From Methylorubrum extorquens (GTDB lineage: Bacteria; Pseudomonadota; Alphaproteobacteria; Rhizobiales; Beijerinckiaceae), in contig LT962688.1 in the NCBI GenBank assembly GCA_900234795.1, forward strand, positions 420,001 through 452,000: a DNA stretch of 32,000 nt. The letters are read 5' to 3'. The position numbers were made by a program, and so were the translations under genes. The notes below the pieces were generated by a model. That model did no database searches. It was given only the letters and a program-made list of their open reading frames with translations, and was not told the DNA's origin. Position 1 is the first letter of the stretch, and every line of letters begins with the position of its first letter. Shown here in pieces: positions 6,864-30,550 of the stretch.

Positions 6864-7709
6864 TTACGGCGTTCTGCGTTCGCTGCGCCGTGCCATCAGC
6901 CAGGAAAGCGCGCCCACGGCATCGGGGATGGCGAGCACATCCGGCATGGCAGGGCGGTCGACGATCACCACGGGAAGCCCGAGCCGACGTGCGGCCTGGA
7001 TCTTCGGATAGGTCGCCGCGCCGCCGGAATTCTTCGTCACCAGCACCTCGATTCGCGCCTCGCGCATGAAGCGGATCTCATCCGCGAGCGTGAAGGGGCC
7101 GCGGGCGCTGACGGTGACGAGGTTCGGCACCGGCAACGCGTCGCCGATCGGCTCGATCGTGCGCACGACATAAGCGTGCTGCGGCGCGCGGGCGAAGGCG
7201 GCCAGTTCCTGTCGGCCGATGGTGAGGAACACCGTTCTCGGTGCTGGTCCGAGTGCGTCGAGACAGGCCGGCACGTTCGCCGCCGCGATCCAGTCGTCGC
7301 CGGGCTCGCGCCCCCAGGCCGGGCGGCGCACCGCGAGGAGCGGCACCGCGACAGCCTTGCACGCTTCGGCCGCATTGGCCGAAATCCGCGCGGCGAACGG
7401 GTGGGTCGCATCGATCATTGCTTCGATGCTGTTCTCCGAAAGCCACCGCGCCAGCCCCTGCGCACCGCCGAACCCGCCGATGCGGGTCGGCACCGGTTCG
7501 GGCCGCGGCGCGGCGGTGCGGCCAGCCAGCGACAGCGTCACCGAGACATCCGGCTCGCGCGCCAGAAGGGCGACGAGCGCGCTGGCCTCGGTGGTCCCGC
7601 CGAGGACGAGGATCCGCAGGGGCGGTGCATCGGGATTCGGCGTGGGATGGAAGGCGGGAGAACCCTGGTCGGCGGCTCCGGACATTCGTACAACCTGTCT
7701 CGCCCGCAT
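6864..7709 (-). CDS. cobK: precorrin-6A / cobalt-precorrin-6A reductase
   Basis: ...[37 protein letters not shown]...[19 protein letters not shown]...[28 protein letters not shown]: CobK/CbiJ pattern. Two in-frame ATGs (7709 and 7685); start unresolved. Confidence 0.85.
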
Positions 7710-7711
7710 CA

Positions 7712-7729
7712 GCCCGGCAAAGGCCGGGC
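7712..7729 (+). promoter_or_regulatory. GC hairpin immediately upstream of the dinB ribosome-binding site
   Basis: GCCCGGC-aaag-GCCGGGC (perfect 7-bp stem, 4-nt loop) followed by GAGGTTTTCGAC-GTG. The GAGG is the likely SD for the dinB GTG at 7742. Function unknown. Confidence 0.35.
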
Positions 7730-7741
7730 GAGGTTTTCGAC

Positions 7742-9019
7742 GTGAGACCCTTCTGCCGCGATTGCCTGACGATGCAAGCCGACGGCGCCCTGCGCTGCCG
7801 GGGATGCGGCTCGCCGCGCCTGCTCTCGCACCCGGCCCGCGACGCCTTGAGCATCGCCCATGTCGATTGCGACGCCTTCTACGCAGCGATCGAGAAGCGC
7901 GACGACCCGTCCTTGCGCGACAAGCCGCTCATCATCGGCGGGGGTAAGCGCGGTGTCGTCTCCACCGCCTGCTATCTCGCCCGGATCTCCGGCGTGCGCT
8001 CGGCGATGCCGATGTTCGAGGCGTTGAAGCGCTGCCCCGATGCCACGGTGCTGCGGCCGGATATGGAGAAATACGCCCGCGTCGGGCGCGAGGTGCGGGC
8101 GATGATGCTGGCGCTGACGCCGCTGGTCGAGCCGGTCTCCATCGACGAGGCGTTTCTCGACCTCTCCGGCACCGAGCGCCTGCACGGGACGAGCCCGGCG
8201 CTCACGCTCGCCCGCTTCGCCGCACGGGTCGAGGCGGAGGTCGGCATCACCGTGTCGGTGGGACTGTCCGACAACAAGTTCCTGGCCAAGATCGCCTCGG
8301 ATCTCGACAAGCCGCGCGGCTTCTCGATCATCGCGGGTGCGGACGCCGCGACCTTCCTCGCCGACAAGCCGGTCGGCATCCTGCCCGGTATCGGCGAGAG
8401 CGCGCGAAACCGCCTCGCTTCCCTCAACATCCACCGCGTCGGCGACATTGCGCGGGTCGATCCGACGCGTCTCCAGGCATCCCTCGGGCGGGATGCGCTG
8501 CGTCTCATCGATCTCGCCGCCGGCCGGGACCGGCGGCCGGTGCGCCCGACCCGGGAGGCCAAGAGCGTCTCGTCCGAGACGACCTTCTCAACCGATCTCA
8601 CCCGGTTCGAGGATCTGCGGCCGATCCTTTGGCAGCTCTGCGAAAAGGTGTCGGCACGGCTCAAGCGGGCGGAACTCGCCGCTGGCAGCGTCACGCTGAA
8701 GCTGAAGGATGCCCGATTCCGGCTGCGCACCCGCACCCGCGGCGGACTGAAACCCACCCAGCTCGCCGACCGGCTCTTCCGCGAGGGCGAGCCGATGCTG
8801 CGGGCGGCCTGCGACGGCACGGCCTTCCGGCTGATCGGCATCGGCGGCGGCGATCTCTGCGGCGCGATCCATGCCGACCGCGGCGATCTCGCCGATCAGG
8901 GTATCGAGCGCGTCGCCCGCCGCGAGGCGGCGCTTGACCGGCTGCGGGAAAAGTTCGGCAGCGCCGCGATTCAGCGCGGGCTCGTCTTCACCGGCGAGCC
9001 GGAGCGGCGGCGCACCTGA
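7742..9019 (+). CDS. dinB: DNA polymerase IV (Y-family) with N-terminal CxxC...CxxC extension
   Basis: Track ORF 7241..9019 is over-extended: its first 167 codons are antisense to cobK. GTG 7742 preceded by GAGG (7730-7733, 8-nt spacer) gives (M)RPFCRDCLTMQADGALRCRGCGSPRLLSHPARDALSIAHVDCDAFYAAIEKRDDPSLRDKPLIIGGGKRGVVSTACYLARISGVRSAMP..., with SIDEAFLDLSG and SVGLSDNKFLAKIASDLDKPRGF. Confidence 0.88.
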   Translation: MRPFCRDCLTMQADGALRCRGCGSPRLLSHPARDALSIAHVDCDAFYAAIEKRDDPSLRDKPLIIGGGKRGVVSTACYLARISGVRSAMPMFEALKRCPDATVLRPDMEKYARVGREVRAMMLALTPLVEPVSIDEAFLDLSGTERLHGTSPALTLARFAARVEAEVGITVSVGLSDNKFLAKIASDLDKPRGFSIIAGADAATFLADKPVGILPGIGESARNRLASLNIHRVGDIARVDPTRLQASLGRDALRLIDLAAGRDRRPVRPTREAKSVSSETTFSTDLTRFEDLRPILWQLCEKVSARLKRAELAAGSVTLKLKDARFRLRTRTRGGLKPTQLADRLFREGEPMLRAACDGTAFRLIGIGGGDLCGAIHADRGDLADQGIERVARREAALDRLREKFGSAAIQRGLVFTGEPERRRT

Positions 9020-19714: not shown

Positions 19715-19942
19715 GGCGGTTCCCGATGATCTGTCCATCGGGGAACCCGAGGCCGCGATTTTGTATCCAATCGCCAATTGGAGCCAGTGACGCGTTCGAA
19801 GCGGATAAATTGAACGAGGTCCCTCGCACGCTGCAGGGATACGGACGCCTCGTCCGGCGCTTTACCGTCCGGCGCCATCCTCGGACCTGCAAAGGATGAC
19901 GCCGCGACGTTGGACCGATCCGGACGCACACGCAGCCGCCCG

Positions 19943-20839
19943 ATGAAGGTAAACCACCTCAGACTCGACCGCCTTCGGGAGTTGCCCCTGCCGATCCCCG
20001 ACGAGGGCAGCAAGGAGCAGCGCGGCACGGTCCTCGTAGTCGGTGGACCCGCCGAAGTTCCGGGCGCCGCCTTTCTGGCGGGCGTCGCCACGCTCCGGGC
20101 CGGGGCCGGTCGCCTCCGCATCGCGACCGTGGAGAGCGCCGCATCGGCGATGGCTCTCGCGGTGCCCGAGGCGCGGGTCATCGGCTTTACCGAGACGGAG
20201 GAGGGCGGGATCGACCCGGCCTCGGCCGCGGCACGCCTGCCGGCCTTGGCGGAGCGCTGCAACGCGATCCTGATCGGCCCGGGGCTGAGCGCCGGCGCCA
20301 CGGCCGACGCACTGGTCCACTCGCTTCTTCCGGCTGGAGCCTCCTCGGCGCTCGTGCTCGATGCCGGCGTCATCGCCGGCCTCGGCGCGCAGGCCGGCGC
20401 GGTTCGATCCTGCGATGGCCGCGCGGTGATCACGCCGCATGCCGGCGAGATGGCCCGGCTCCTGGGCATCGACAGAAGCGAGGTTGAAGCCAATCCTCTG
20501 GCGGCAGCTCAGCGCGCTGCCGAAAAGCTCGGATGCGTCGTGATCATGAAGGGCGCGCAGAGCTGGATCGTGCCCCCCTCGGGTGAGCCGTGGCTCTACA
20601 GCGGCGGCGGTGTCGGGCTGGCGACCTCCGGCTCCGGTGATGTCTTGGCGGGCATTGTTGCAGGGCTGCTCGCACGCGGCACGGAGACGACGACAGCGGC
20701 GGCATGGGGGGTCTATCTGCACGGGCAAGCCGGGCAACGACTCGCCGAGCGCATCGGACCAGTCGGCTTCCTGGCACGCGAGATCATCGACGAGGTACCC
20801 GCCATCCTGCGTGACGTCGATGCGGGCCACTCGTCGTAA
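19943..20839 (+). CDS. nnrD: ADP-dependent NAD(P)H-hydrate dehydratase (YjeF C-terminal type)
   Basis: Track ORF starts at TTG 19910; ATG 19943 gives MKVNHLRLDRLRELPLPIPDEGSKEQRGTVLVVGGPAEVPGAAFLAGVATLRAGAG... It has ...AILIGPGL...VITPHAGEMARLLG...VVIMKGAQSWI...LATSGSGDVLAGIVAGLLARG, the carbohydrate-kinase-fold NnrD signature. Confidence 0.85.
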   Translation: MKVNHLRLDRLRELPLPIPDEGSKEQRGTVLVVGGPAEVPGAAFLAGVATLRAGAGRLRIATVESAASAMALAVPEARVIGFTETEEGGIDPASAAARLPALAERCNAILIGPGLSAGATADALVHSLLPAGASSALVLDAGVIAGLGAQAGAVRSCDGRAVITPHAGEMARLLGIDRSEVEANPLAAAQRAAEKLGCVVIMKGAQSWIVPPSGEPWLYSGGGVGLATSGSGDVLAGIVAGLLARGTETTTAAAWGVYLHGQAGQRLAERIGPVGFLAREIIDEVPAILRDVDAGHSS

Positions 20840-20907: not shown

Positions 20908-21075
20908 ATGACGCAATCGGAGCCCGCGAAACCCGGCGATGAAGCACCGCCCGGAACACCCGGAACGGGTGAGAACCTGTGTCCCCGCTGTAGCGGAAGT
21001 GGCCAGATCGAAGCCAAAGCTTGCCCGGACTGCAACGGCACCGGCAAAGTGATCGCCGGCATCGGTGGCGGCTGA
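20908..21075 (+). CDS. 55-aa zinc-ribbon protein with two DnaJ-type CxxCxGxG motifs (not in ORF track)
   Basis: GAGGGAG (20894-20900), 7-nt spacer, ATG 20908: MTQSEPAKPGDEAPPGTPGTGENLCPRCSGSGQIEAKACPDCNGTGKVIAGIGGG, stop TGA 21073-21075. CPRCSGSG and CPDCNGTG are exact CxxCxGxG repeats. Confidence 0.6.
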   Translation: MTQSEPAKPGDEAPPGTPGTGENLCPRCSGSGQIEAKACPDCNGTGKVIAGIGGG

Positions 21076-21154: not shown

Positions 21155-21169
21155 GAACGAAAATAGAAC
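21155..21169. promoter_or_regulatory. alphaproteobacterial LexA (SOS) box, copy 1
   Basis: GAACgaaaataGAAC, an exact GAAC-N7-GAAC direct repeat (complement GTTC-N7-GTTC). Flanks GCTA...AA are identical to those of the box at 27884-27898. It lies 100 nt upstream of the 84-aa gene start at 21269. Confidence 0.7.
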
Positions 21170-21268: not shown

Positions 21269-21523
21269 GTGACGATGCGGACGACCTACCTCGTGCAGAC
21301 CTTCATTCTGAAGCGCAAACGTCTGTGCCCCGGCGACCAGCAAGTGTCGCCGACGGTGAACGGTGCACTGAAGCGGGCCGAGGCGATGGCCACACGGCTG
21401 CCAGGCACCGCCGCGATCCAGATCGTGGCCGACGACGAAACGGGGGAGTTGGAAAGCGCGACGATTCTCGGCCGGTTCGGCGAGGTGCCGGAAGACTTCG
21501 CCGAGACGCTGCAGGCCGCCTGA
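21269..21523 (+). CDS. 84-aa protein of unrecognised family, paralogue 1 (SOS-box linked)
   Basis: GGGAG (21255-21259), 9-nt spacer, GTG 21269: (M)TMRTTYLVQTFILKRKRLCPGDQQVSPTVNGALKRAEAMATRLPGTAAIQIVADDETGELESATILGRFGEVPEDFAETLQAA. Same length as 28265..28519 and 67/84 identical by hand count. The shared GAGAACC just upstream supports this start over track start 21227. Confidence 0.75.
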   Translation: MTMRTTYLVQTFILKRKRLCPGDQQVSPTVNGALKRAEAMATRLPGTAAIQIVADDETGELESATILGRFGEVPEDFAETLQAA

Positions 21524-21550: not shown

Positions 21551-21826
21551 ATGGCTTTCAAGCCGAAATCGGCCGCAGAGACGAAAGCGCGCGACCTGGG
21601 TTTGGCGCTCGCACGCATCGCCGAGAACGAGGGCATGCCGGCCCATGTCGGCGTGGATGCTCTGCGTCGCTCCAGCCCGCGCCTGACGCCGCTGGCGATC
21701 GGGCAGATGGTGCGCAAGCACCGCGACATCCTCGAAGAGACGCTGATCGAGCGCGGGCTGACGCTCGTGGATTATGCCGACCAGGGACCGGGACGCGGCA
21801 TGGAGTTCGAGGTCGCCAGCGCCTGA
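21551..21826 (+). CDS. hypothetical protein (91 aa) downstream of paralogue 1
   Basis: AGAGGGA SD-like, then ATG 21551: MAFKPKSAAETKARDLGLALARIAENEGMPAHVGVDALRRSSPRLTPLAIGQMVRKHRDILEETLIERGLTLVDYADQGPGRGMEFEVASA. It starts 27 nt after the preceding stop. Confidence 0.55.
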   Translation: MAFKPKSAAETKARDLGLALARIAENEGMPAHVGVDALRRSSPRLTPLAIGQMVRKHRDILEETLIERGLTLVDYADQGPGRGMEFEVASA

Positions 21827-22001: not shown

Positions 22002-22376
22002 GTGGACGATGATCGTGTTTGGTCGTTCGAAAAGAGCCTTTGGACCGGTGACCCGGATCATTACCGCGAACTCGTCGATGACGAGTGCCTGATGGCCTTG
22101 CCGCAGCCGCCCTACGTCTTCGGCGGCGCTCAAGCGATCGAAGCCGTCGCGAACACACCCCGTTGGTCCGGCGTCGAATTCGACGATGGCCGGATCGCGC
22201 GTCCCCAGGAAGGCCTGATCGTCATCGCCTACTCCGTGAAAGCCTCACGGGGCGAAGAGACCTACGAGGCCCATTGCACCTCGACCTACCGCCGGCTGTC
22301 GCACGAGGAATGGCGGGTGGTCCAGCACCAGCAGACCCCGCGCATTCTCGCGCCCGTCGTTGACGAGAAGCGCTGA
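22002..22376 (+). CDS. SnoaL/NTF2-like (DUF4440-type) protein
   Basis: GAGGAGG, then GTG 22002: (M)DDDRVWSFEKSLWTGDPDHYRELVDDECLMALPQPPYVFGGAQAIEAVANTPRWSGVEFDDGRIARPQEGLIVIAYSVKASRGEETYEAHCTSTYRRLSHEEWRVVQHQQTP. Size and pattern are typical of NTF2-like small proteins. Confidence 0.6.
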   Translation: MDDDRVWSFEKSLWTGDPDHYRELVDDECLMALPQPPYVFGGAQAIEAVANTPRWSGVEFDDGRIARPQEGLIVIAYSVKASRGEETYEAHCTSTYRRLSHEEWRVVQHQQTPRILAPVVDEKR

Positions 22377-22449
22377 CGCAGCGGTCACGTGAGAGCGGTC
22401 GCCGACGACAACTCGCGTCGCGATCAACGGCCGAGCACATCGTGAAAGG

Positions 22450-22476
22450 GAGCCGCCTCGGAAGACCGGGCGGCTC
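22450..22476 (+). terminator. possible terminator hairpin after the SnoaL-like gene
   Basis: GAGCCGCC-tcggaagaccg-GGCGGCTC; weak T tract (tcgctctta). Confidence 0.3.
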
Positions 22477-22671
22477 TCGCTCTTATCGAGGCGGTGCAAG
22501 GCCGATGCGCAGAACGCCCTTCAAGCGCGCGCACGTGCGATGCGGGGGCAATTCAGCAAATTCCGTCGGGCGGATCACACACGAACAGCCCTGCGCAGCC
22601 GTCGCTCTCGCGGTCATTCCAGCGCACCTAAGAGTTCGGAAACCGCAGGCTTCCGAGAGCTTGGAAAAGTT

Positions 22672-22720
22672 TGGCTCCCAGAGCCGACCTTGAACCTGCA
22701 ACAAAGCGATGAACAGTCGG
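22672..22720 (-). repeat. decayed tRNA-Asn 3-prime fragment (outer att-type repeat)
   Basis: In tRNA sense: CGACTGTTCATCGCTTTGTTGCAGGTTCAAGGTCGGCTCTGGGAGCCA. It aligns to the copy at 24378-24427 with about 9 substitutions that break the T-arm and the anticodon loop. No D-arm or 5-prime acceptor strand follows. Confidence 0.6.
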
Positions 22721-22895
22721 GTGGAGTGGCTGACTTTTTTGAGAGACGGCAACACGGAGAGGGTGATTCGCTGAGGCGAGATTCACCCTGCGGTAACATC
22801 CTGTCTCGCTTGCGCGCGATCGCCGGGATAGGCTGGCGGCAAGGTTGAACTCCAACGCCTCGCACTCCGCCAAGCCCTCCTGCCTCAGCATGACC

Positions 22896-23198
22896 TCAAT
22901 GCAAATATTGGGGGCTTGGCGCGTTGAGATGGGCGCTGATCGTCACTTCCAAGATGCTGAGCTTCAAGCGCAGCTGAAGAATGGTCGGCGCGACTAACTC
23001 TAGATCAACGCCATCGATCGCCACCTCATGAAGCTCGGTGAGCAATCGATAGATCTCGACCAAATCGTCATCGGATATCAGGTGAAAACCGTCCTGCCTC
23101 AACGCATTGTGCGCTCTCACCAGCGCAAGCACCCGTTCAACGAGAAGGTCCAAATCGGCGAAAACGATCAGTGTTTCTGTTGCTTTTTTGAGATCCAT
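22896..23198 (-). CDS. hypothetical protein (100 aa), island remnant cargo
   Basis: Track ORF; MDLKKATETLIVFADLDLLVERVLALVRAHNALRQDGFHLISDDDLVEIYRLLTELHEVAIDGVDLELV...; helical, leucine-rich, GC far below the genome average; no family recognised. Confidence 0.4.
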   Translation of the reverse strand: MDLKKATETLIVFADLDLLVERVLALVRAHNALRQDGFHLISDDDLVEIYRLLTELHEVAIDGVDLELVAPTILQLRLKLSILEVTISAHLNAPSPQYLH

Positions 23199-23310
23199 AA
23201 TTCCACGGCTGGCGACGCATTTCTGCGAGGCACAACCGTCGTCAACGCGGGTTACGAAGAGTTATGGAAGGCCGCAGGCGCCGTTAAATATAATTTCAGG
23301 ATGTATCATT

Positions 23311-23556
23311 CTATAAAATCAACATAGATCCGTCCGTGCGATGACGCACCTCAGAGAAATTGGGCAAATACAAACTCAAATTGAGTAGTTGCCCGCGCCA
23401 ATATTCAATCAAAGACTCAAAAATCACTTCAAATAACTTGATCCTACCAGATTTCAAAACATACTCGGCATTCTCCGCTACGCGTTTATCGAACTGGCCC
23501 ACCGACTCGTTCGGACCCGTCGAGCGCTCACGACTGCACGTCTTGCCGACGAGCAC
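23311..23556 (-). CDS. doubtful ORF in AT-rich DNA (81 aa)
   Basis: Track ORF only. The C-terminal half lies in DNA of about 30-45% GC. No SD or motif recognised. It may be a gene fragment. Confidence 0.2.
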   Translation of the reverse strand: MLVGKTCSRERSTGPNESVGQFDKRVAENAEYVLKSGRIKLFEVIFESLIEYWRGQLLNLSLYLPNFSEVRHRTDGSMLIL

Positions 23557-23739
23557 GCGACCGGCGATCCCCGCACTCGATCAGAGCCTCACGCAGGAGA
23601 GAATGACCCTGTCCGTCGTTGTTCGACTTGGACGGGTCCTTGGCCCCCACCGAGCACCGGGCGCAGGTCCTGAATCGTCTCGGCAAGGAGAAGGACTGGC
23701 GCGGATCTTACGCGGCTTGCGACCGGGACGAGCCCTGCG

Positions 23740-24242
23740 CCCGATCGTTCGCACGTTGCTGGCGCTCCACCACACCGGCGCCAACATTGAAATTTGGTCC
23801 GGCTGATCCGACGAGGTGAAGGACAAGACGACGGCTTAGCTTGCTGATCATGGGCTGGGACCCATCCCGATTCGGATGCGCCCGCGCGGGCGACCGCCAG
23901 CCCTGGTGTTCGAGGATCGCGCATCCATGGTGGCCCGGCCAATGCCAGAAACGAACGGCCACGAGGTCGCCGAGCATGACCTCAGCCACGACCCTGAACG
24001 GCTCGCCGAGATGCCGCTGGCGTCGGCCCCTCGTCATCGACGAACGCACCGGCCTCCCATGGCGGCGCTCGCACTTCAGCCGCACGTACCGCGAGTTCGC
24101 GCGTGCCTCCGGCTGGCCGGACGGCATCTGGAACATGAACAGCAGGGCAGGGGCGATGAGTGAGGCTTGCGAGGCTGGGGCGGTGCCGGACAACGTGATG
24201 CGCACCGCGACGCCCACACCGATATCGACAACGATGCTCTAA
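23740..24242 (+). pseudogene. tyrosine-recombinase (integrase) pseudogene, C-terminal part, frameshifted
   Basis: Integrase-like pieces are split over at least three frames: ...TLLALHHTGANIEIWSG* (compare LLALxTGxRxGExxxLxWSD), ...PPALVFEDR..., and RPLVIDERTGLPWRRSHFSRTYREFARASGWPDGIWNMNSRAGAMSEACEAGAVPDNVMRTA... (second catalytic Arg region). The His and Tyr segments are missing or out of frame. It ends 135 nt from the tRNA-Asn fragment. This is a motif-level call only. Confidence 0.4.
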
Positions 24243-24377
24243 AACCGCGGACCGATGGTTCCGTCGGGCCGCGCTACGAACGGCGTGGCGAAAAGCGAAG
24301 CTCGGCGGCTAAAAACGGCCGAGGAACAACGGCGGCAACACGCCTCTGCCGTAGATCCGCTATGTGATTGAGAGATT

Positions 24378-24427
24378 TGGCTCCCCGAGCAGGACTCGAA
24401 CCTGCGACAAAGCGATTAACAGTCGGG
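24378..24427 (-). repeat. tRNA-Asn(GTT) 3-prime fragment (att-type repeat), not an intact tRNA
   Basis: In tRNA sense: CGA-CTGTTAA-TCGCT-TTGTC-GCAGG-TTCGAGT-CCTGC-TCGGGGAG-CCA. That is an anticodon loop with GTT, a variable loop, a perfect T-arm with the GGTTCGAGTCC box, a 3-prime acceptor strand and CCA. Upstream sequence (caatcacatcaccc) cannot form the D-arm, the 5-prime acceptor strand or the full anticodon stem. Confidence 0.7.
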
Positions 24428-24457
24428 GTGATGTGATTGATTTCATTGGATGACGTT

Positions 24458-24501
24458 ACCGCGGGGAGGGGCTTACGCTCTTACGGAAATCTCCCCGCGG
24501 T
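24458..24501. other. perfect 11-bp hairpin 30 nt inside the element B end
   Basis: ACCGCGGGGAG-gggcttacgctcttacggaaat-CTCCCCGCGGT. A weaker hairpin (AGGGTGA...TCACCCT, 22760-22789) sits at the equivalent offset from the decayed fragment of remnant A. Confidence 0.6.
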
Positions 24502-24547
24502 GACCGGCAGGCTCGCCCGATCCGGCGCCACGGGATAGGCTCGGGAA

Positions 24548-24814
24548 ATGGCTGATTTCTCCCCCACCGTCGGCGAACTCTTCAAGGCCAACGTCGTCAC
24601 CCATGACGATCTGAACGCGCTGATTGATGCCGTTCTCGCGGGCCGGATGAATGTGCAGGAGGAACTCGCCGAGGGCTACACGCTCGACGTGGCAGCCGCC
24701 GTGAAGGCAAACGCCTTCGCTACCGCTGTTTTGCGCGACAAGACGAGCACGACTGGTGCTAGGCGCACCGCCACCCGCACAGCGATCCTGCTGGCGCGTG
24801 CGCAGAAGGCGTGA
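24548..24814 (+). CDS. hypothetical protein (88 aa)
   Basis: Track ORF; MADFSPTVGELFKANVVTHDDLNALIDAVLAGRMNVQEELAEGYTLDVAAAVKANAFATAVLRDK...; weak SD; no family recognised. Confidence 0.4.
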   Translation: MADFSPTVGELFKANVVTHDDLNALIDAVLAGRMNVQEELAEGYTLDVAAAVKANAFATAVLRDKTSTTGARRTATRTAILLARAQKA

Positions 24815-24854
24815 GGAAGACCGACCGGTAAGCCTGAAGCAACTCAGCCACCCT

Positions 24855-25280
24855 ATGCCGTCGGCCCGTTCTCAGCCGGCAGCCGTGATGCTACTTCCCG
24901 AACTTGCGCCCGATCATCTCCCGCCTGAGGCCGCCGAGTGGCGGAAAGCCTTCGGTGCCCTGCGCCCAACCTCCTCACCGTGCCGCTACCTCGGCGTCAC
25001 CGCCTGGGCGAACATCTACGAGGCCTGCACCGATTTCATCGAGCGCTTCGGCGACGAGGCTGTACGCCTGGGCTGGAGCGCGCCGCAGATCTTCGGTGTC
25101 CACCCCCAGCATGGCACGCTGCGCATAGACTGGTGCGGGGTGATGATCACCGGCGGGAACAAGGCGATCGGCATCGAGCCCAACCGGATCCTGTTCGGCA
25201 ATGTCAGCGGCTACCGGGACACGCCCGGCGCGCCGACCGGCATTCCGATCTGGGAGTTCGCGGCGCGACAGAAAGGATGA
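24855..25280 (+). CDS. hypothetical protein (141 aa)
   Basis: ATG 24855 within track ORF 24756..25280: MPSARSQPAAVMLLPELAPDHLPPEAAEWRKAFGALRPTSSPCRYLGVTAWANIYEACTDFIERFGDEAVRLGWSAPQIFGVHPQHGTLRIDWCGVMITGGNKAIGIEPNRILFGN... Coding-like composition; no clear SD, so the start is uncertain. Confidence 0.45.
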   Translation: MPSARSQPAAVMLLPELAPDHLPPEAAEWRKAFGALRPTSSPCRYLGVTAWANIYEACTDFIERFGDEAVRLGWSAPQIFGVHPQHGTLRIDWCGVMITGGNKAIGIEPNRILFGNVSGYRDTPGAPTGIPIWEFAARQKG

Positions 25281-25730
25281 TGCTCCACGACCGCAAAGAC
25301 ACGGCCGCTACACAGATTGAGCAACGTCTCGCATCGGGCGAGGTAGACCCGAGCTAGCAGCCGATCGCGGCGCTTTGGTATCTGTCTATCCAGATGCGAC
25401 GCCTGCCAGACGAGGCATGATCTCACTGCGTGACCTCAATGCAATCCGAATGAACCTGCGCATTAAAACACGACCGACGATGGCCGGGCGAATTATAAGG
25501 TATCTATATAAATCTTTGAACTTCTCTCAAAATATCTTTGTTACCCACCTTACGCATAGCTCATGGATTAGCCGATGGCTGATATACCTACAGGTTCTGC
25601 ATAATATCGAGCAACGCTGTTCCGTACCGCATTATGGTGCGTTGCACCCAGAGATTACCGCGTCGCACAAATTCCGTGGTTCAATCTCTCATCGGTCGCC
25701 GTCACTGGCCGGCCACCCCGGAGACGATCC

Positions 25731-25961
25731 ATGCGTACGATGCAGCTTCTTTCCCTCGCCGCTCTCGCATCTGTCACCGTGGCGAGTTCCGCCATGGCCG
25801 ACGAGAGCATCCACCTGACGCCGCCGCTGTTCCGTGAACAGGCCCGCGCCACCGCGTCTGTCCGCCCGGCGTCCGAGCTGACGACCACACCTCACATCAC
25901 GGCTGTGGCCCCCGCCAGCCGCAAGATCGTGGCCGACGCCGCCGCGGCCTCTGCTCGCTAA
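25731..25961 (+). CDS. small secreted protein (76 aa)
   Basis: GGAGA, 6-nt spacer, ATG 25731: MRTMQLLSLAALASVTVASSAMA signal peptide, then DESIHLTPPLFREQARATASVRPASELTTTPHITAVAPASRKIV... Confidence 0.5.
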   Translation: MRTMQLLSLAALASVTVASSAMADESIHLTPPLFREQARATASVRPASELTTTPHITAVAPASRKIVADAAAASAR

Positions 25962-25973
25962 GTCCTCGGTGAT

Positions 25974-26006
25974 GGGGCCGTCGCCGGATTTGGCACCGAT
26001 GGCCCC
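25974..26006. terminator. imperfect hairpin between convergent 25731 gene and umuC
   Basis: GGGGCCGTCGCC-ggattt-GGCaCCGAtGGCCCC followed by TTCCCTC. Confidence 0.3.
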
Positions 26007-26070: not shown

Positions 26071-27411
26071 TCACCTCAAAGCAGCGTAAGCCACGGGTAG
26101 CTCGTCGACCTGCGTCGTGTAGCGCGGCGTGCGCATTTCGAACTTCGTCGACCAGGTGCGCCGCTGCTGCGCCAGACCGGCGCGCGCCGGTACCACGCTG
26201 CCGCGGCCGAAGCGGGCATTGCAGGCGTCCAGCGCACCCATGAGCCGCGTCGAGCGCTCGCGGTCGAGCCGGCCGATCAGCGCCCGCTGCGAGGCCGCCA
26301 GCGGCACGAGATCGACCGTGACTACCCCGGCCTTCGAGTAGCGCCAGGGCGGGCTGCCCTGCTCGCGCCAGGTGCGGGCCACGCCATGCATTGCCGCCGA
26401 GATCAGCGCCAGCGTGTCGTTGGTCGCCTCCGGCAGCGTCACCACCGTCGAGACCGAGCGCATCGGCTCGCCTCGGTCGTGTTCGCTCGTGTGGTAGAAG
26501 ACGGTGATGTGGTCGGTACCGAGGCCTTCACGCCGCAGCTTTTCGCCGAGGCGCGTTGCATGGGCAGCCACTGCTTGCTCCAGCTCGGCCCGTTCCGTCA
26601 CCCGGCCGGAGAATGAGCGCGTCACCGCACACCCCTTACGGCGAGCCGGCACGAGTTCGAGCCCGAGGCAGGACACGCCTCGCAGCTCGTGGATCATACG
26701 CTCACCCACCACCGTCAGCGCCTTGCGCACCGGGCGCGGGTCGATGTCGCGCAGGTCCGCCACTGTATCGATGCCCATGGCCTCGAGCTTCGGCAACGAG
26801 GCTCGGCCGACGCCCCACAGCTCGCCGACATGGATGCGGCAGAGCCAGTGCTCGTAGGCGGCGGGCTCGGTCAGGTCGCAGACGCCGTCGAGCTCAGGCA
26901 CCGTCTTGGCGATGTGGTTGGCGAGCTTGGCCAGCGTCTTGGTCGGGCCGATGCCGACGCAGGTCGGGATGCCCGTCCAGGCCCGCACGGTAGCGCGGAT
27001 ATCGCGGGCCAGCGCCACGCGATCCCGGCGCACGAAGCCGGTCAGGTCGAGGAAACTCTCGTCGATCGAGTAGATTTCCACGTCCGGCGTGGCGTCGCGA
27101 TAGATCGCGTTGATGCGCGCCGACATGTCCCCGTAGAGCGTGTAATTCGACGAGAATACGCGAACGCCCTGTGCCTCGCAGAACCCGCGGATCTTGAAAT
27201 AGGGGTCGCCCATCTTGATCCCGAGCGCCTTGGCCTCGGGCGTGCGGGCGATGGCGCAGCCATCGTTATTGCTCAGCACGATCACCGGCACGCGGGCGAG
27301 CTTGGCGTCGAACACGCGCTCGCACGAGCAGTAGAAGCTGTTGCCGTCGATGAGCGCGAGGGCGCGGCCGCCGCCGATCCGGTCGCGCTGACGGGCCTCG
27401 GCGTTGCTCAT
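26071..27411 (-). CDS. umuC: translesion DNA polymerase V catalytic subunit UmuC (Y-family)
   Basis: [74 protein letters not shown]...[12 protein letters not shown]...[17 protein letters not shown]. The start overlaps the umuD stop (ATGA at 27408-27411). Confidence 0.9.
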
Positions 27412-27875
27412 CGGCCCTGTCCGCCGCGGGCGACGTGCCAGCGGATGGTGAAGCGGACCACGCCCCAGACATCGACCTCGGCTAGTTCCTCGAGCGCGTA
27501 GGCGGGCAGGTCGGCATTGTCGAAGGAGAGGTGCGCGCGGTTGCCCTCGACGACCATGCGCTTGATCGACATCTCACCGTCGACCGCCGCCACGACGACG
27601 CTGCCGTGCGCAGGTTTGAGGCTGCGATCGACGCAGGCGAGATCCCCGTCGAAGATCCCAGCATCGCGCATCGAATCGCCAGCGATGCGCCAGAGGAAGG
27701 TGGCCGGCGGGTTCGGCACGAGCCAGCGCGGCAGTTCCAGTGCGCCTTCTAGAAAGTCGTCGGCGGGAGAGGGGAAGCCCGCGCAGAGCGCTTGGCCCAT
27801 CAGCGGCACACGAACTGTGGAAAAGCCCTCCTGCGGTAGCTCTGCGACCGTGTGCAGCCTCACTCGAGTCCCCAT
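27408..27875 (-). CDS. umuD: UmuD-like S24 peptidase (LexA C-terminal-domain type)
   Basis: ...[33 protein letters not shown]...[49 protein letters not shown]: an AG-type cleavage region, then catalytic Ser (GDSM) and Lys (SIKR). The start is either ATG 27875 or GTG 27863, which has GGGGA 5 nt upstream. Confidence 0.88.
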
Positions 27876-27883
27876 CTGAGCTA

Positions 27884-27898
27884 GAACAGAAAGAGAAC
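27884..27898. promoter_or_regulatory. alphaproteobacterial LexA (SOS) box, copy 2, in the umuD / small-gene-operon divergent spacer
   Basis: GAACagaaagaGAAC, an exact GAAC-N7-GAAC. Flanks GCTA...AA are identical to copy 1. It lies 8 nt from the umuD ATG codon and 95 nt from ATG 27994 on the other strand. Confidence 0.8.
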
Positions 27899-27993
27899 AA
27901 ACAGCAGGCGCGTGGCGGGTTCAATCGGCTCTGTGCGCCAAGCGCAAACGGCTGTGTGCGCCTGTGGATAACGGGGACAGAGGGGTGATGACG

Positions 27994-28254
27994 ATGTCGC
28001 AGGAGCGCTGCCACTTCCACTGCACGGACGGCCGGGATGTCGTCTTCGACCTGCAGGGGCGGGCCGTCGCAGAGCACGACCTGCGTCCGGTCTGCGCCAG
28101 CGTGGCGGCCGAGGTGATGCAGGGCTGCGCTGCTCCGGTCGACTGGTCAGCCTGGATCGTCGAAGTGCATGACGCCTACGGTCAGCACGTGATGACGTTC
28201 AGCTTCGACGAGATCGCGAACGAGGTCGGCATCCGGCCGGCGCTGGCAGCTTGA
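27994..28254 (+). CDS. DUF6894-like small protein (86 aa)
   Basis: GAGGGG, 8-nt spacer, ATG 27994: MSQERCHFHCTDGRDVVFDLQGRAVAEHDLRPVCASVAAEVMQGCAAPVDWSAWIVEVHDAYGQHVMTFSFDEI... This matches my recollection of the DUF6894 pattern (xxYxFHLxDGxxxxxDxxGxE...WxxxVxDxxGxxVxxxxF). The track ORF begins at GTG 27964. Confidence 0.5.
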   Translation: MSQERCHFHCTDGRDVVFDLQGRAVAEHDLRPVCASVAAEVMQGCAAPVDWSAWIVEVHDAYGQHVMTFSFDEIANEVGIRPALAA

Positions 28255-28264
28255 GGAGAGAACC

Positions 28265-28519
28265 ATGGCCATGAAGACGACGTTCCTGGTCCAAACCTTC
28301 GTGCTCAAGCGGAAGCGGCTCGTCCCCGGAGACCGGCAGATCTCGACGACGAGCAGCGCAGCGTTGAAACGGGCCGAGGCGATGGCTGCGCGCATGCCAG
28401 GCACGGCCGCCCTGCAGATCGTGGCCGACGACGAGACGGGCGAACTGGAGAGCGCGACGATCCTCGGGCAATTCGGTGAGGTGCCGGACGATTTCGCCGA
28501 GAGCTTGCAGGCGGCCTGA
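28265..28519 (+). CDS. 84-aa protein of unrecognised family, paralogue 2 (SOS-box linked)
   Basis: GAGGAGAG, then ATG 28265: MAMKTTFLVQTFVLKRKRLVPGDRQISTTSSAALKRAEAMAARMPGTAALQIVADDETGELESATILGQFGEVPDDFAESLQAA. 67/84 identical to 21269..21523. Confidence 0.8.
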   Translation: MAMKTTFLVQTFVLKRKRLVPGDRQISTTSSAALKRAEAMAARMPGTAALQIVADDETGELESATILGQFGEVPDDFAESLQAA

Positions 28520-28521
28520 CC

Positions 28522-28734
28522 ATGCGGACCATCGTCGAACTCGACAACGGCAGCGCCGCGGCCATCAGCGACGGCGGCAAGGATCTCGCGGACCTCCTGG
28601 CCCGCGCGCTCATGACGGGAAGCGACGCCGCGTGGGACAAGTTGCGGCCGTATGGGATCAGCCGAATCGTTGAGCGTCACCCGACCGAGCCAGCGAAGGT
28701 TGTTGTCGGCGAACGCGCGATCGCGGTCCGGTAG
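28522..28734 (+). CDS. hypothetical protein (70 aa)
   Basis: ATG 2 nt after the preceding stop (tgaccATG): MRTIVELDNGSAAAISDGGKDLADLLARALMTGSDAAWDKLRPYGISRIVERHPTEPAKVVVGERAIAVR. Confidence 0.55.
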   Translation: MRTIVELDNGSAAAISDGGKDLADLLARALMTGSDAAWDKLRPYGISRIVERHPTEPAKVVVGERAIAVR

Positions 28735-28984: not shown

Positions 28985-30550
28985 CTAGCGCCCCATGCAG
29001 ACGTAGCTGATCGATTGCGGTGCGTTTGATGCCGCAATCGTCATGGCAATGCCTTGGCGAGAAGTCTCGTAAGCAGGTGCATGCATTCCTCCGAGCGAGG
29101 AAGATACAACACAGTCGGGGATATCATTGTAGGTCGCTGCAAAGCGGATAGTGCAGCCAGCTTCGCCGGATTGCATTGAAATGGTCCCGTGAAGATCATT
29201 GGCTGACTTGGATAGCTTCGACGCTCCACAGCCGCTTATGGATAGTTTTGGCCCCGGCCGGGCCGAGAGGTGCCTTCCCACATCCACATCACCCGAGTTG
29301 TATGCGGCCAGAGAATAGCTTGACCCGGAATTTGTCGCGCCAAGCGTAAAAGCCTGTATTGCGCCATTCCATCCGAACGACGCTCGTCCGCTCCAACTCA
29401 GAAATGTCGTCTGAGGTAGAACTGCGAAGTTGCCGCTTGCGAGAGTCGCTCGACTGAAATCCAGTCCACTGTCGTGCTTTCCGTCTGCGCGTAGAACGGC
29501 AAACGAGTCGCTTTGATCGTACAAGAAGGCGATGGAGTGCCGCCTCTGAGCAGCACTCTTGAGCGTTACGTCTGCATTCGTGCTGTCGAAAATCACAGCA
29601 TCCTTGACCACGGAGCCGACATCGGTCGACGGCCCGCCGCTCCAGTAGTCACCGTAATGTGCGCCATACGGATTGGCGCCGCCACTGTTGACTGCGCCCG
29701 AGCCAACATACCGATAGGCGAGCATAGGGAACGTGCCAGGCCCTTGGCCGCCGATGAACGAGCACGCCATGAAGTACGGCGAGCCGATATCGCTGTCCTT
29801 GTTCCCATTGCTGCAGTCGCGCTCCTCGCCGAAAATCGTCACGTCGCCTACTCCGGGCAGCACGGTCGTGTTGGTGACGAAGCCCCACCCCGCACCCGTT
29901 CCAGGCTCGAAGTTGGCGGCGATCGAAAAGGCACTCTTCCCGTTGTTCGCGCCTGGGCCGAGATAGGCCCACACGATGGAGCCATCTCGAAGGTTGGTAC
30001 CGTTTCCGGTCGGGCCCTCCCCACGGGGCGCTGAAGTGCCGGCCGACTGCGCGCGGTAAAGACAGCCGGGCACGGTCTGCGTTGCGCCTCCATCGACTGT
30101 CACAGAGCACTTGGAATTGAGGACAGCGACCGTCTCGCCAGCTTCGTAGCGAGTGCCTGGCTTCCAGTATACAACCTTGCCTTTATCGCTTGTGAAGTTG
30201 AGGTGAAATCCGACCTCCTGTGCAGTTGCATCCTTCTGCGTTCGGACATTGACAAGGATTGGTGTCAGCAAATGCGGGCCATCGAAACACCCGCCGACTG
30301 AGCAGAAGTCGATCATAGGCCCATTCGGATGTACGAAAATCCCAAGCGGCTGCTCCCTGCTCTTCTCGCCATGGACACGCATCAGCGAAGGGGCGCCCAG
30401 GGGGAGGATCGATATCGCTCGATCGACTTGTCCTGATGGCGCGCTTGCCGGGTCCGAAGCGTTCTGCAGTGGCTGAGCGGAAATCGTCCCTGCCGTGGAG
30501 GCGACGGCGAGCAGGCTGTAAAGCCCTACCTGTGCGGGGCGAGTGAGCAT
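28985..30550 (-). CDS. secreted 521-aa protein of unknown function (Gly/Ser/Asn/Thr-rich, probably beta-rich)
   Basis: MLTRPAQVGLYSLLAVASTAGTISA-QP Sec-type signal peptide. No motif recognised; 13 Cys in total. GC is clearly below its surroundings (64/120 = 53% hand-counted at 29041-29160). It has its own upstream region after a strong terminator. Confidence 0.7.
   Translation of the reverse strand: MLTRPAQVGLYSLLAVASTAGTISAQPLQNASDPASAPSGQVDRAISILPLGAPSLMRVHGEKSREQPLGIFVHPNGPMIDFCSVGGCFDGPHLLTPILVNVRTQKDATAQEVGFHLNFTSDKGKVVYWKPGTRYEAGETVAVLNSKCSVTVDGGATQTVPGCLYRAQSAGTSAPRGEGPTGNGTNLRDGSIVWAYLGPGANNGKSAFSIAANFEPGTGAGWGFVTNTTVLPGVGDVTIFGEERDCSNGNKDSDIGSPYFMACSFIGGQGPGTFPMLAYRYVGSGAVNSGGANPYGAHYGDYWSGGPSTDVGSVVKDAVIFDSTNADVTLKSAAQRRHSIAFLYDQSDSFAVLRADGKHDSGLDFSRATLASGNFAVLPQTTFLSWSGRASFGWNGAIQAFTLGATNSGSSYSLAAYNSGDVDVGRHLSARPGPKLSISGCGASKLSKSANDLHGTISMQSGEAGCTIRFAATYNDIPDCVVSSSLGGMHAPAYETSRQGIAMTIAASNAPQSISYVCMGR

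Follow-up and report, generated by a model that had tools for sequence, protein, structure and literature searches.

Small accessory proteins of the SOS response, such as DinI, RecX, DdrR, antirepressors and division inhibitors, decide when a damaged cell mutates and when its prophages fire. To our knowledge, such proteins remain unknown outside a few model groups. DinI, a gammaproteobacterial SOS-induced protein that binds the RecA filament, has a beta-alpha-beta-beta-alpha topology, and DinI-like genes are encoded together with umuDC homologues on some plasmids (impCAB). The acidic patch of DinI, LexA (D150/D151/E152), UmuD and lambda CI is placed on RecA residues K232/R243/K245 in the filament groove (PMC9926225). 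Gifsy prophages carry LexA-controlled operons consisting of dinI and a small antirepressor, and the induction of LexA-controlled prophage antirepressors couples the host SOS response to the phage switch (PMC3121763). DdrR of Acinetobacter is 78–81 amino acids (aa) long and is always divergent from umuDAb (PMC7273328, PMC11332147). In this study, 32,000 nucleotides (nt) of the Methylorubrum extorquens genome (assembly GCA_900234795.1, contig LT962688.1, positions 420,001–452,000 of the forward strand; this whole stretch is referred to as the window) were analyzed around an 84-aa gene at 28265–28519, which is copy 2 of a pair of paralogues. Both copies are very probably LexA-controlled SOS genes, and the operator of copy 2 appears to be common to the divergent umuDC genes. 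Their products, with a rough probability of 0.35, would act on the self-cleavage axis formed by RecA* and the S24 proteins, as an analogue and not a homologue of DinI/ImpC or DdrR. The two copies and the two LexA boxes were located as follows.

21269..21523, plus strand: copy 1 of the 84-aa family, with a GTG start, in context type B (box, family gene, 91-aa gene p91, DUF4440 gene)
28265..28519, plus strand: copy 2 of the 84-aa family, the feature under study, with an ATG start, GGAG 6 nt upstream, and 10 nt past the stop of a DUF6894 gene
21155..21169, minus strand: LexA box 1, GTTCTATTTTCGTTC on the minus strand and GAAC-N7-GAAC on the coding strand, 100 nt upstream of copy 1
27884..27898, minus strand: LexA box 2, GTTCTCTTTCTGTTC on the minus strand, between umuD and the divergent operon of DUF6894 and copy 2

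The motif GTTC-N7-GTTC is listed as the SOS box of Caulobacter (PMC9578287). Exactly two perfect matches to it could be found in the 32 kb window, each upstream of a family copy, and box 2 lies between umuDC and the copy 2 operon as a common element of both. Taken alone, the two window boxes did not reach significance, as at least two matches also arose in 16 of 100 window shuffles; it is the comparative data that carry the argument.

In Methylobacteriaceae, 79 loci with 80 family copies were searched for a perfect box within 600 nt upstream, which was found for 39 copies against a background of 0.05 per 600 nt. The orientation of these boxes was always identical and the distances were stereotyped, at approximately −105, as in the orthologues of copy 1, and approximately −365. 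The extended consensus of 40 boxes was GYTA-GAAC-N7-GAAC-AAAC. Box 1 sits inside GCTAGAAC, the left part of this consensus, which we take to resemble an alphaproteobacterial −10 element; this resemblance would place the operator on the promoter. Among distant members (28–40% identity, different neighbourhoods), 8 of 10 contexts revealed a perfect box: R. leguminosarum pSK03 at −35, Sinorhizobium sp. B11 at −245, Bosea sp. 685 at −38, three prophage-like metagenome loci at −62 to −66, L088 at −188, and L093 at −63. A perfect box was not found in the other 2 of the 10. In IMG/VR contigs, which are predicted viruses and in which the start codon of the family gene was picked by alignment, a perfect box was present within 300 nt upstream in 29 of 44 contigs, mostly at −17 to −78, with an expectation of 0.036. 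The box spacers vary between lineages while the GAAC/GTTC tetramers are kept, and it is therefore well supported, though not demonstrated, that LexA controls most of the family, both window copies among them. This link to SOS, to which the original prediction alluded only through the experiments it proposed, is the principal new result.

The neighbours of the boxed copies point to a second common feature. Copy 2 belongs to context type A of the Methylobacteriaceae, in which the order is umuC ← umuD ← box → (DUF6894) → family gene; this type comprised 27 of the 80 copies, copy 2 included. The genes on this side of the window are given below.

26071..27411, minus strand: umuC, catalytic subunit of the Y-family polymerase V (best NCBIfam match UmuC, 389 bits, below the subfamily cut-off of 431)
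27408..27875, minus strand: umuD, self-cleaving S24 subunit (Peptidase_S24; UmuD model, 124 bits against a cut-off of 110)
27988..28254, plus strand: DUF6894 gene, 88 aa from the ATG at 27988 (PF21834, 28.8 bits against a cut-off of 24.1), in an open reading frame (ORF) that opens at the GTG at 27964

DUF6894 comes first in the rightward operon and is kept upstream of the family gene in the loci with the far box. The homologous region on Methylobacterium plasmids is annotated as a Y-family polymerase and umuD. The family also occurs in contigs of temperate-phage type, 45 of which were obtained by an IMG/VR scan with the prophage-type subfamily. In prophage-like loci and viral contigs, the order is an early leftward operon ← box → family gene, which meets the convergent cI, followed by cro. 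A convergent CI-type gene was present within 4.5 kb of the family gene in 29 of the 45 viral contigs, and in 14 of those 29 the cI 3′ end lay within approximately 40 nt of the family gene stop. The CI proteins of L084, L085, and L087 kept the G-x-S-(M/L) serine, the downstream lysine and the Ala-Gly site; these three inspected proteins look self-cleaving, since the S24 Ser/Lys dyad and the Ala-Gly site are retained. An S24 protein with RecA*-dependent self-cleavage is thus a recurrent neighbour of the family, namely UmuD in one setting and CI in the other.

Comparison with the described systems revealed a likeness in each case together with clear differences. The DinI/ImpC proteins (PF06183) are close in size (81 versus 84 aa) and are likewise small stand-alone alpha/beta proteins whose surface carries acidic residues and whose C-terminal helix is acidic; they too are under LexA control and are encoded by chromosomes as well as prophages (PMC3121763). 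Unlike DinI, the predicted topology of the family has an extra N-terminal strand, and membership in the DinI family was rejected, as neither copy nor any of 48 diverse members gave a PF06183 match. In a collection of plasmids and chromids, DinI homologues were found in 130 records, all gammaproteobacterial and none from Hyphomicrobiales, and the 84-aa family was matched on Rhizobium, Sinorhizobium, and Methylobacterium replicons only; the ranges of the two families look complementary. The PLSDB entries of the Methylobacterium matches are unannotated. DdrR resembles the family in being damage-inducible, lineage-restricted, of comparable length (78–81 aa), and of unknown fold, and its geometry matches the arrangement umuD ← box → (DUF6894) → copy 2. 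Divergence from a umuD-family gene across a common operator could be seen for copy 2 and the other type A copies, and not for copy 1 or many other members. DdrR differs in being confined to a genus without LexA, where it works with the UmuDAb repressor as its corepressor, whereas the present locus has a canonical LexA box and an ordinary UmuD, and many members do not adjoin umuD. The prophage antirepressors (GfoA/GftA of Gifsy, Tum of 186, AntC of N15) are also small, prophage-encoded, and located behind a LexA box; however, they serve repressors that are not cleaved, while the three CI proteins inspected beside the family look self-cleaving, and many family members are chromosomal host genes with conserved synteny. 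Homology to known antirepressors was rejected, with no PHROGs or Pfam match and no tblastn match in 50,697 phage records.

The paralogue pair was evaluated in detail. Both ORFs could be located at the predicted positions, 84 aa each. The original prediction counted 67 of 84 identical residues by hand, which is correct when the GTG start is read as Met (BLASTP: E = 1e-51, 78/84 positives = 93%, gapless); the literal translation gives 66 of 84, because copy 1 begins with GTG. At the DNA level, 193 of 252 bases were identical, and the pair was the sole long repeat of the window (255 nt, 77%, spacing 6996). The nucleotide differences were distributed over codon positions 1/2/3 as 14/9/36, with dN = 0.129, dS = 1.06, and omega = 0.12 (Nei-Gojobori). 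The purifying selection proposed from the synonymous differences was borne out by this codon-aware dN/dS analysis and, beyond the pair, by database homologues (74 genes from other genomes, 2636 pairs, median omega 0.16, maximum 0.43); the codon comparisons quoted for LVQTF and KRKR were also accurate. As for the invariant block that had been described, an identical block exists, but it is in fact QIVADDETGELESATILG, 18 residues long. It had further been suggested that homology extends into the ribosome-binding region with GAGAACC. This motif is indeed present ahead of the start in both copies, while in-register upstream homology could not be found (ungapped identity 27%, chance level). In copy 2, GAGAACC directly abuts the ATG (0 nt), while in copy 1 a gap of 4 nt separates it from the GTG; because the distances differ and the upstream identity is 27%, it is read as a common Shine-Dalgarno-like motif and not as in-register homology. 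The similarity of the pair ends at the ORF borders. The GTG start assigned to copy 1 was nevertheless backed, as GGGAGA(A/G)C-N4-GTG-ACG-ATG was kept in 8/8 orthologues examined; nearly all homologues are 84 aa long with an N-terminus equivalent to that obtained from this GTG, which gives further support. A Methylorubrum extorquens protein whose annotation gives no known function matched copy 2 at 100% identity. A neighbour-joining tree placed each of the two copies among the Methylorubrum copies of its own context type, which for copy 1 are the near-box copies, and this grouping together with a dS of approximately 1 suggests that the duplication is old. As far as sequence can tell, both ORFs are confirmed as genuine, selected paralogues of one uncatalogued family.

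The family is of modest size: at 90% identity, a single-sequence query yielded 353 clusters and a profile query 691, and at 50% identity 183 representatives were counted among 1.84 billion proteins. Almost all members are stand-alone proteins of 79–91 aa. The reading of longer domain-containing proteins as fusions was set aside, since they look like mis-called or extended ORFs and were uninformative. The named members belong to Methylobacterium/Methylorubrum, Bosea, Rhizobium, Sinorhizobium, Allorhizobium, and Aurantimonas, all Hyphomicrobiales, with a single exception, a metagenome bin labelled Stutzerimonas stutzeri. Methylobacteriaceae carry two to four family copies per genome.

In alignments at 34–36% mean column identity, the best-conserved positions were F12, A33, A37, and G46, the hairpin D55-x-E57-T58-G59-E60, and G71-x-V-P74 with the acidic helix after it. 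The D-x-E-T-G-E motif reads DDETGELE in the window family member. The basic residues R16-K17-R18 are invariant within Methylobacteriaceae, and distant members usually have a basic residue followed by L; copy 2 has approximately 11 acidic and 9 basic residues by residue count. The string D-D-E-T-G-E of copy 2 (residues 55–60, window 28427–28444) is nearly the same as the DEETGE of Nrf2. The eukaryotic Nrf2 docks through its DEETGE hairpin into an arginine-rich pocket of Keap1. The likeness is surely convergent, and by analogy it illustrates how such a motif may serve as an acidic beta-hairpin ligand for a basic pocket.

AlphaFold modelling on a shallow alignment was unusable (pLDDT 56), and a diverse alignment was used instead. 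The resulting model was confident (pLDDT 89, pTM 0.73) and had a beta-beta-alpha-beta-beta-alpha topology with b1 at 3–15, b2 at 18–27, a1 at 30–41, b3 at 46–55, b4 at 61–71, and a2 at 77–83, in agreement with the small alpha/beta domain with an acidic tail that had been anticipated from the letters. The family had been reported as not recognized, and the library searches gave the same outcome. Pfam and NCBIfam revealed no match for either copy, PHROGs and PADLOC gave nothing meaningful, and a PDB sequence-profile search yielded none below E = 0.2. When 48 and then 10 diverse members were compared with Pfam, only scattered sub-threshold matches to DUF2188, DUF6894, and DUF4288 were seen. A Foldseek search of the model against PDB and BFVD gave no match with E ≤ 0.001. 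The top PDB matches were RbcS-like domains (TM < 0.5, E above 0.2), with RNase PH and exosome subdomains among the weak ones, and the top viral matches in BFVD were uncharacterised phage proteins with TM up to 0.63. A tblastn search of 50,697 deposited phage genomes did not reveal a family match, and the searchable literature turned up neither an account of the 84-aa family nor one of a Methylobacterium LexA regulon.

Several assignments were considered and rejected. The DUF6894 and DUF2188 families are small, of similar size, and abundant in the same bacteria, and a DUF6894 gene directly precedes copy 2; however, their matches were all below the gathering thresholds and came from 1–2 of approximately 58 members. 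For DUF6894 (PF21834), the one member reached only E = 0.021 and 15.4 bits against a cut-off of 24.1, and hhalign against the neighbouring DUF6894 clade gave a probability of 0.15%. The JGI name ‘YbjQ (UPF0145)’ on one cluster had no backing from any Pfam match. A type II toxin-antitoxin module was dismissed on the grounds that the neighbours vary between contexts, with no fixed partner and no toxin-antitoxin family match. An inner-membrane protein of the SidA/DidA type was also dismissed, as the model is compact alpha/beta and has no long hydrophobic helix.

Based on these findings, a role in the SOS response can be proposed. Each window copy would be an SOS gene behind an alphaproteobacterial LexA operator that overlaps GCTAGAAC, and because of this overlap LexA would repress both copies until RecA* triggers LexA cleavage. 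The induced protein would then act through protein-protein binding on the RecA*-dependent self-cleavage of the S24 proteins LexA, UmuD, and phage CI. In this proposal, the acidic beta3–beta4 hairpin D-x-E-T-G-E, together with E38 and the acidic C-terminal helix past G-x-V-P, would dock on a basic surface. By one of two variants, the timing or extent of UmuD to UmuD′ processing, of LexA cleavage, and of prophage induction would be tuned; in variant (b), the protein would bind the S24 protein directly, as DdrR does with UmuDAb or the small antirepressors with their repressors. It is rather doubtful, and offered as a tentative extension, that the family represents a new class of SOS modulators with its own fold, an independently evolved counterpart of DinI by which Hyphomicrobiales hosts and temperate phages might control RecA*-dependent S24 cleavage. 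If so, it would determine when the mutagenic polymerase V is activated and when prophages are induced. What is new is a protein family and fold within a well-known regulatory system; the protein would work in the manner of the small SOS accessory proteins, yet it fits none of the described families with which it was compared. The family is conserved, multi-copy, and strongly selected, stands behind LexA operators in plant-associated and soil Hyphomicrobiales and in prophages adjoining UmuD or CI, and is absent from every library searched, with no structural relative in PDB or BFVD by Foldseek. It is also a concrete and cheap target, approximately 84 aa long and soluble, with D-x-E-T-G-E as a candidate functional motif. 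It could reveal how alphaproteobacteria tune the activation of polymerase V and the induction of prophages, and would add a member to the core SOS regulon of the order.

A number of observations weigh against this proposal. Approximately half of the Methylobacteriaceae copies are boxless, with one-mismatch sites only at the background rate, and sit in unrelated housekeeping neighbourhoods; for this reason the family is not exclusively SOS-regulated, and the boxless paralogues seem truly to have lost the box or never to have had one. The loci are phylogenetically non-independent and represent about ten independent contexts, not 160, so that the raw box fractions make independent observations seem more numerous than they are. 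Where the family gene is linked to umuDC, the box could primarily serve umuDC, and many boxed copies (type B, Rhizobium, Bosea) have no adjacent S24 gene. Sequence or profile kinship with DinI was rejected, since hhalign against E. coli DinI (sequence verified by PF06183) gave a probability of 0.3%. No DinI chain was among the top 50 Foldseek PDB matches. The mechanism is proposed from genomic context and surface chemistry; no expression, induction, or binding data on the family were found in the searchable literature. The acidic hairpin might just as well bind metal or mimic DNA, with another target.

The carriage of the gene by temperate phages allows a different explanation, in which it is a phage moron (superinfection exclusion, anti-defence, or host takeover) or causes SOS-induced convergent transcription into cI; the chromosomal copies would be domesticated or hitch-hiking remnants, and the LexA box would merely time expression to induction. 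In the 45 IMG/VR contigs, the gene sits in the immunity region, with the leftward early operon on one side and cI on the other, and its invariable convergence with cI makes transcriptional interference feasible on geometric grounds. In the window, the two copies also flank a low-GC stretch without recognisable genes, and umuDC is often mobile, as the plasmid homologues indicate. Against this, the protein is under strong purifying selection in all lineages, the chromosomal synteny is conserved (Methylorubrum types A and B; R. leguminosarum pSK03) and points to a host function, boxless housekeeping paralogues exist, and there is no PHROGs or PADLOC match nor any in the deposited phage genomes, which leaves the moron explanation unlikely. 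Prophage carriage would also be compatible with a kil-like arrest of the host during induction, and the protein might then be a checkpoint effector, that is, a damage-induced protein that blocks cell division or the initiation of replication, with a part like that of SulA, SidA/DidA, or YneA. We know of no SOS division inhibitor described for Hyphomicrobiales, which counts in its favour. Like the SOS division inhibitors SidA and YneA (PMC9578287), the family is small, lineage-restricted, and probably LexA-controlled; however, the alphaproteobacterial SidA is a small inner-membrane protein (PMC9578287), whereas the model is compact and free of a long hydrophobic helix. The share of Methylobacteriaceae paralogues without LexA control, in housekeeping contexts, is awkward for a growth inhibitor, the number of copies per genome would be unusual, and the specific adjacency to umuD and cI is left unexplained, so that a checkpoint role is considered quite improbable.

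Binding to nucleic acid was given slightly less weight. Here the basic beta1–beta2 hairpin (KRKRL) would contact damaged DNA, single-stranded DNA, or RNA, and the protein would be a translesion or repair accessory. The invariance of R16-K17-R18 in Methylobacteriaceae and the usual basic residue and L in distant members are in line with this, as are the neighbours umuDC, a UvrD-like helicase, and a PD-(D/E)XK-type gene and the weak Foldseek likeness to RNase PH and exosome subdomains. Family-wide, however, the basic hairpin is much less conserved than the acidic one, acidic residues outnumber basic residues in copy 2, and no known nucleic-acid-binding fold or family was matched. A far more sceptical explanation holds that the GAAC-N7-GAAC sites are not LexA operators of the family genes, being chance matches, parts of promoters, or elements serving umuDC or the leftward phage operons, and that the family has no link to SOS. 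The shuffles of the window with at least two matches would agree with it, as would the location of the umuDC-linked and prophage boxes in divergent regions, where they could serve the other operon. Yet the enrichment over background was approximately 10-fold or more in three independent data sets, the distances are stereotyped, boxes also occur in contexts without a divergent SOS gene (type B, R. leguminosarum), and the tetramers are kept while the spacers vary, and this explanation is thus held to be highly improbable. The remaining probability falls to an explanation outside those considered. In favour of the preferred reading, action on the RecA*-dependent self-cleavage of S24 proteins, count the adjacency to umuD and cI, the DNA-damage neighbours in Bosea (UvrD-like helicase) and Rhizobium (PD-(D/E)XK-type gene), the conserved acidic hairpin, and the range complementary to that of DinI.

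The remaining genes that accompany the two copies in the window were as follows.

28522..28734, plus strand: 70-aa ORF, 2 nt past the copy 2 stop, with no family match
21551..21826, plus strand: 91-aa gene, 27 nt downstream of copy 1, with no Pfam, PDB, or NCBIfam match
22002..22376, plus strand: DUF4440 (SnoaL-like) gene (PF14534, E = 3.8e-6), kept downstream in context type B

Homologues of the 70-aa ORF were found at the same position in L001 and L003 (80–87%), and the ORF is possibly in the same operon as copy 2. The 91-aa gene is probably co-transcribed with copy 1. Its homologue was located directly 3′ of the family gene in 16 loci, including the umuDC-linked L071 and L072, and it may be a functional partner of the 84-aa family. 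Further loci with the 91-aa gene are L013, L017, L029, L067, L068, and L074. The umuD start codon (complement of 27873–27875) lies 9 nt from box 2. With no space left for a Shine-Dalgarno sequence, the umuD mRNA may be leaderless or nearly so and may come from a promoter that overlaps box 2. A scan for promoters of E. coli type and terminators gave nothing, as expected at this GC content, and the Rfam and tRNA scans of the window were empty.

Two further contexts could be distinguished in Methylobacteriaceae: type B, in which the box is followed by the family gene, the 91-aa gene, and DUF4440, as for copy 1, and the boxless type C. The boxless Methylobacterium paralogues L015, L025, L032, L033, L037, L046, L047, and L058 have TTTCGTGCTAGGTGCGCTC at approximately −75 from the start, where copy 1 carries TTTCGTGCTAGAACGAAAATAGAAC; a single promoter type seems to occur in two forms, one with a LexA operator and one lacking it. 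In Bosea, the family gene is divergent from a small gene, which is followed by a UvrD-like helicase, while in Rhizobium a PD-(D/E)XK-type gene lies 16 nt downstream of the family gene, and in R. leguminosarum pSK03 the family gene is positioned after anthranilate synthase. In the prophage loci (L085 2850–3000, L087, L084, and L098–L130), the box lies in a divergent region of 150–220 nt that separates the family gene from a leftward operon of small uncharacterised genes; from its position, this early-left operon may itself be LexA-controlled.

Further observations concern the rest of the window. Between the two copies, at 22400–26000, the GC content was 0.56–0.65 compared to approximately 0.68–0.70 around it, and no ORFs recognisable by Pfam were present. 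Approximately 2 kb of the DNA between the copies looks like an inserted or foreign remnant, since the spacing in M. rhodesianum (L022) is 5.0 kb versus 7.0 kb here. Directly 3′ of the copy 2 operon, on the opposite strand, a 521-aa ORF (28985–30550, minus strand) had a GC content of 0.58 and no Pfam or NCBIfam match. Ahead of box 1, a 55-aa protein (20908–21075, plus strand) with two CxxC pairs of the DnaJ-type zinc finger gave 32 bits with the anti-TRAP model against a cut-off of 65; this gene is kept just ahead of the box in Methylorubrum type B, after an NAD(P)HX dehydratase gene (19910–20839). The segment 10276–16738 contains the cell-cycle regulator GcrA, followed by PhoB, PhoU, and PstBACS on the minus strand, and this housekeeping context identifies the window as Methylorubrum extorquens chromosome and not plasmid or phage. 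A second Y-family polymerase was present at 7241–9019 (plus strand), with 665 bits to the Pol IV (DinB) equivalog and no perfect LexA box nearby; its true start is probably downstream of 7241, because the match begins at residue 169.

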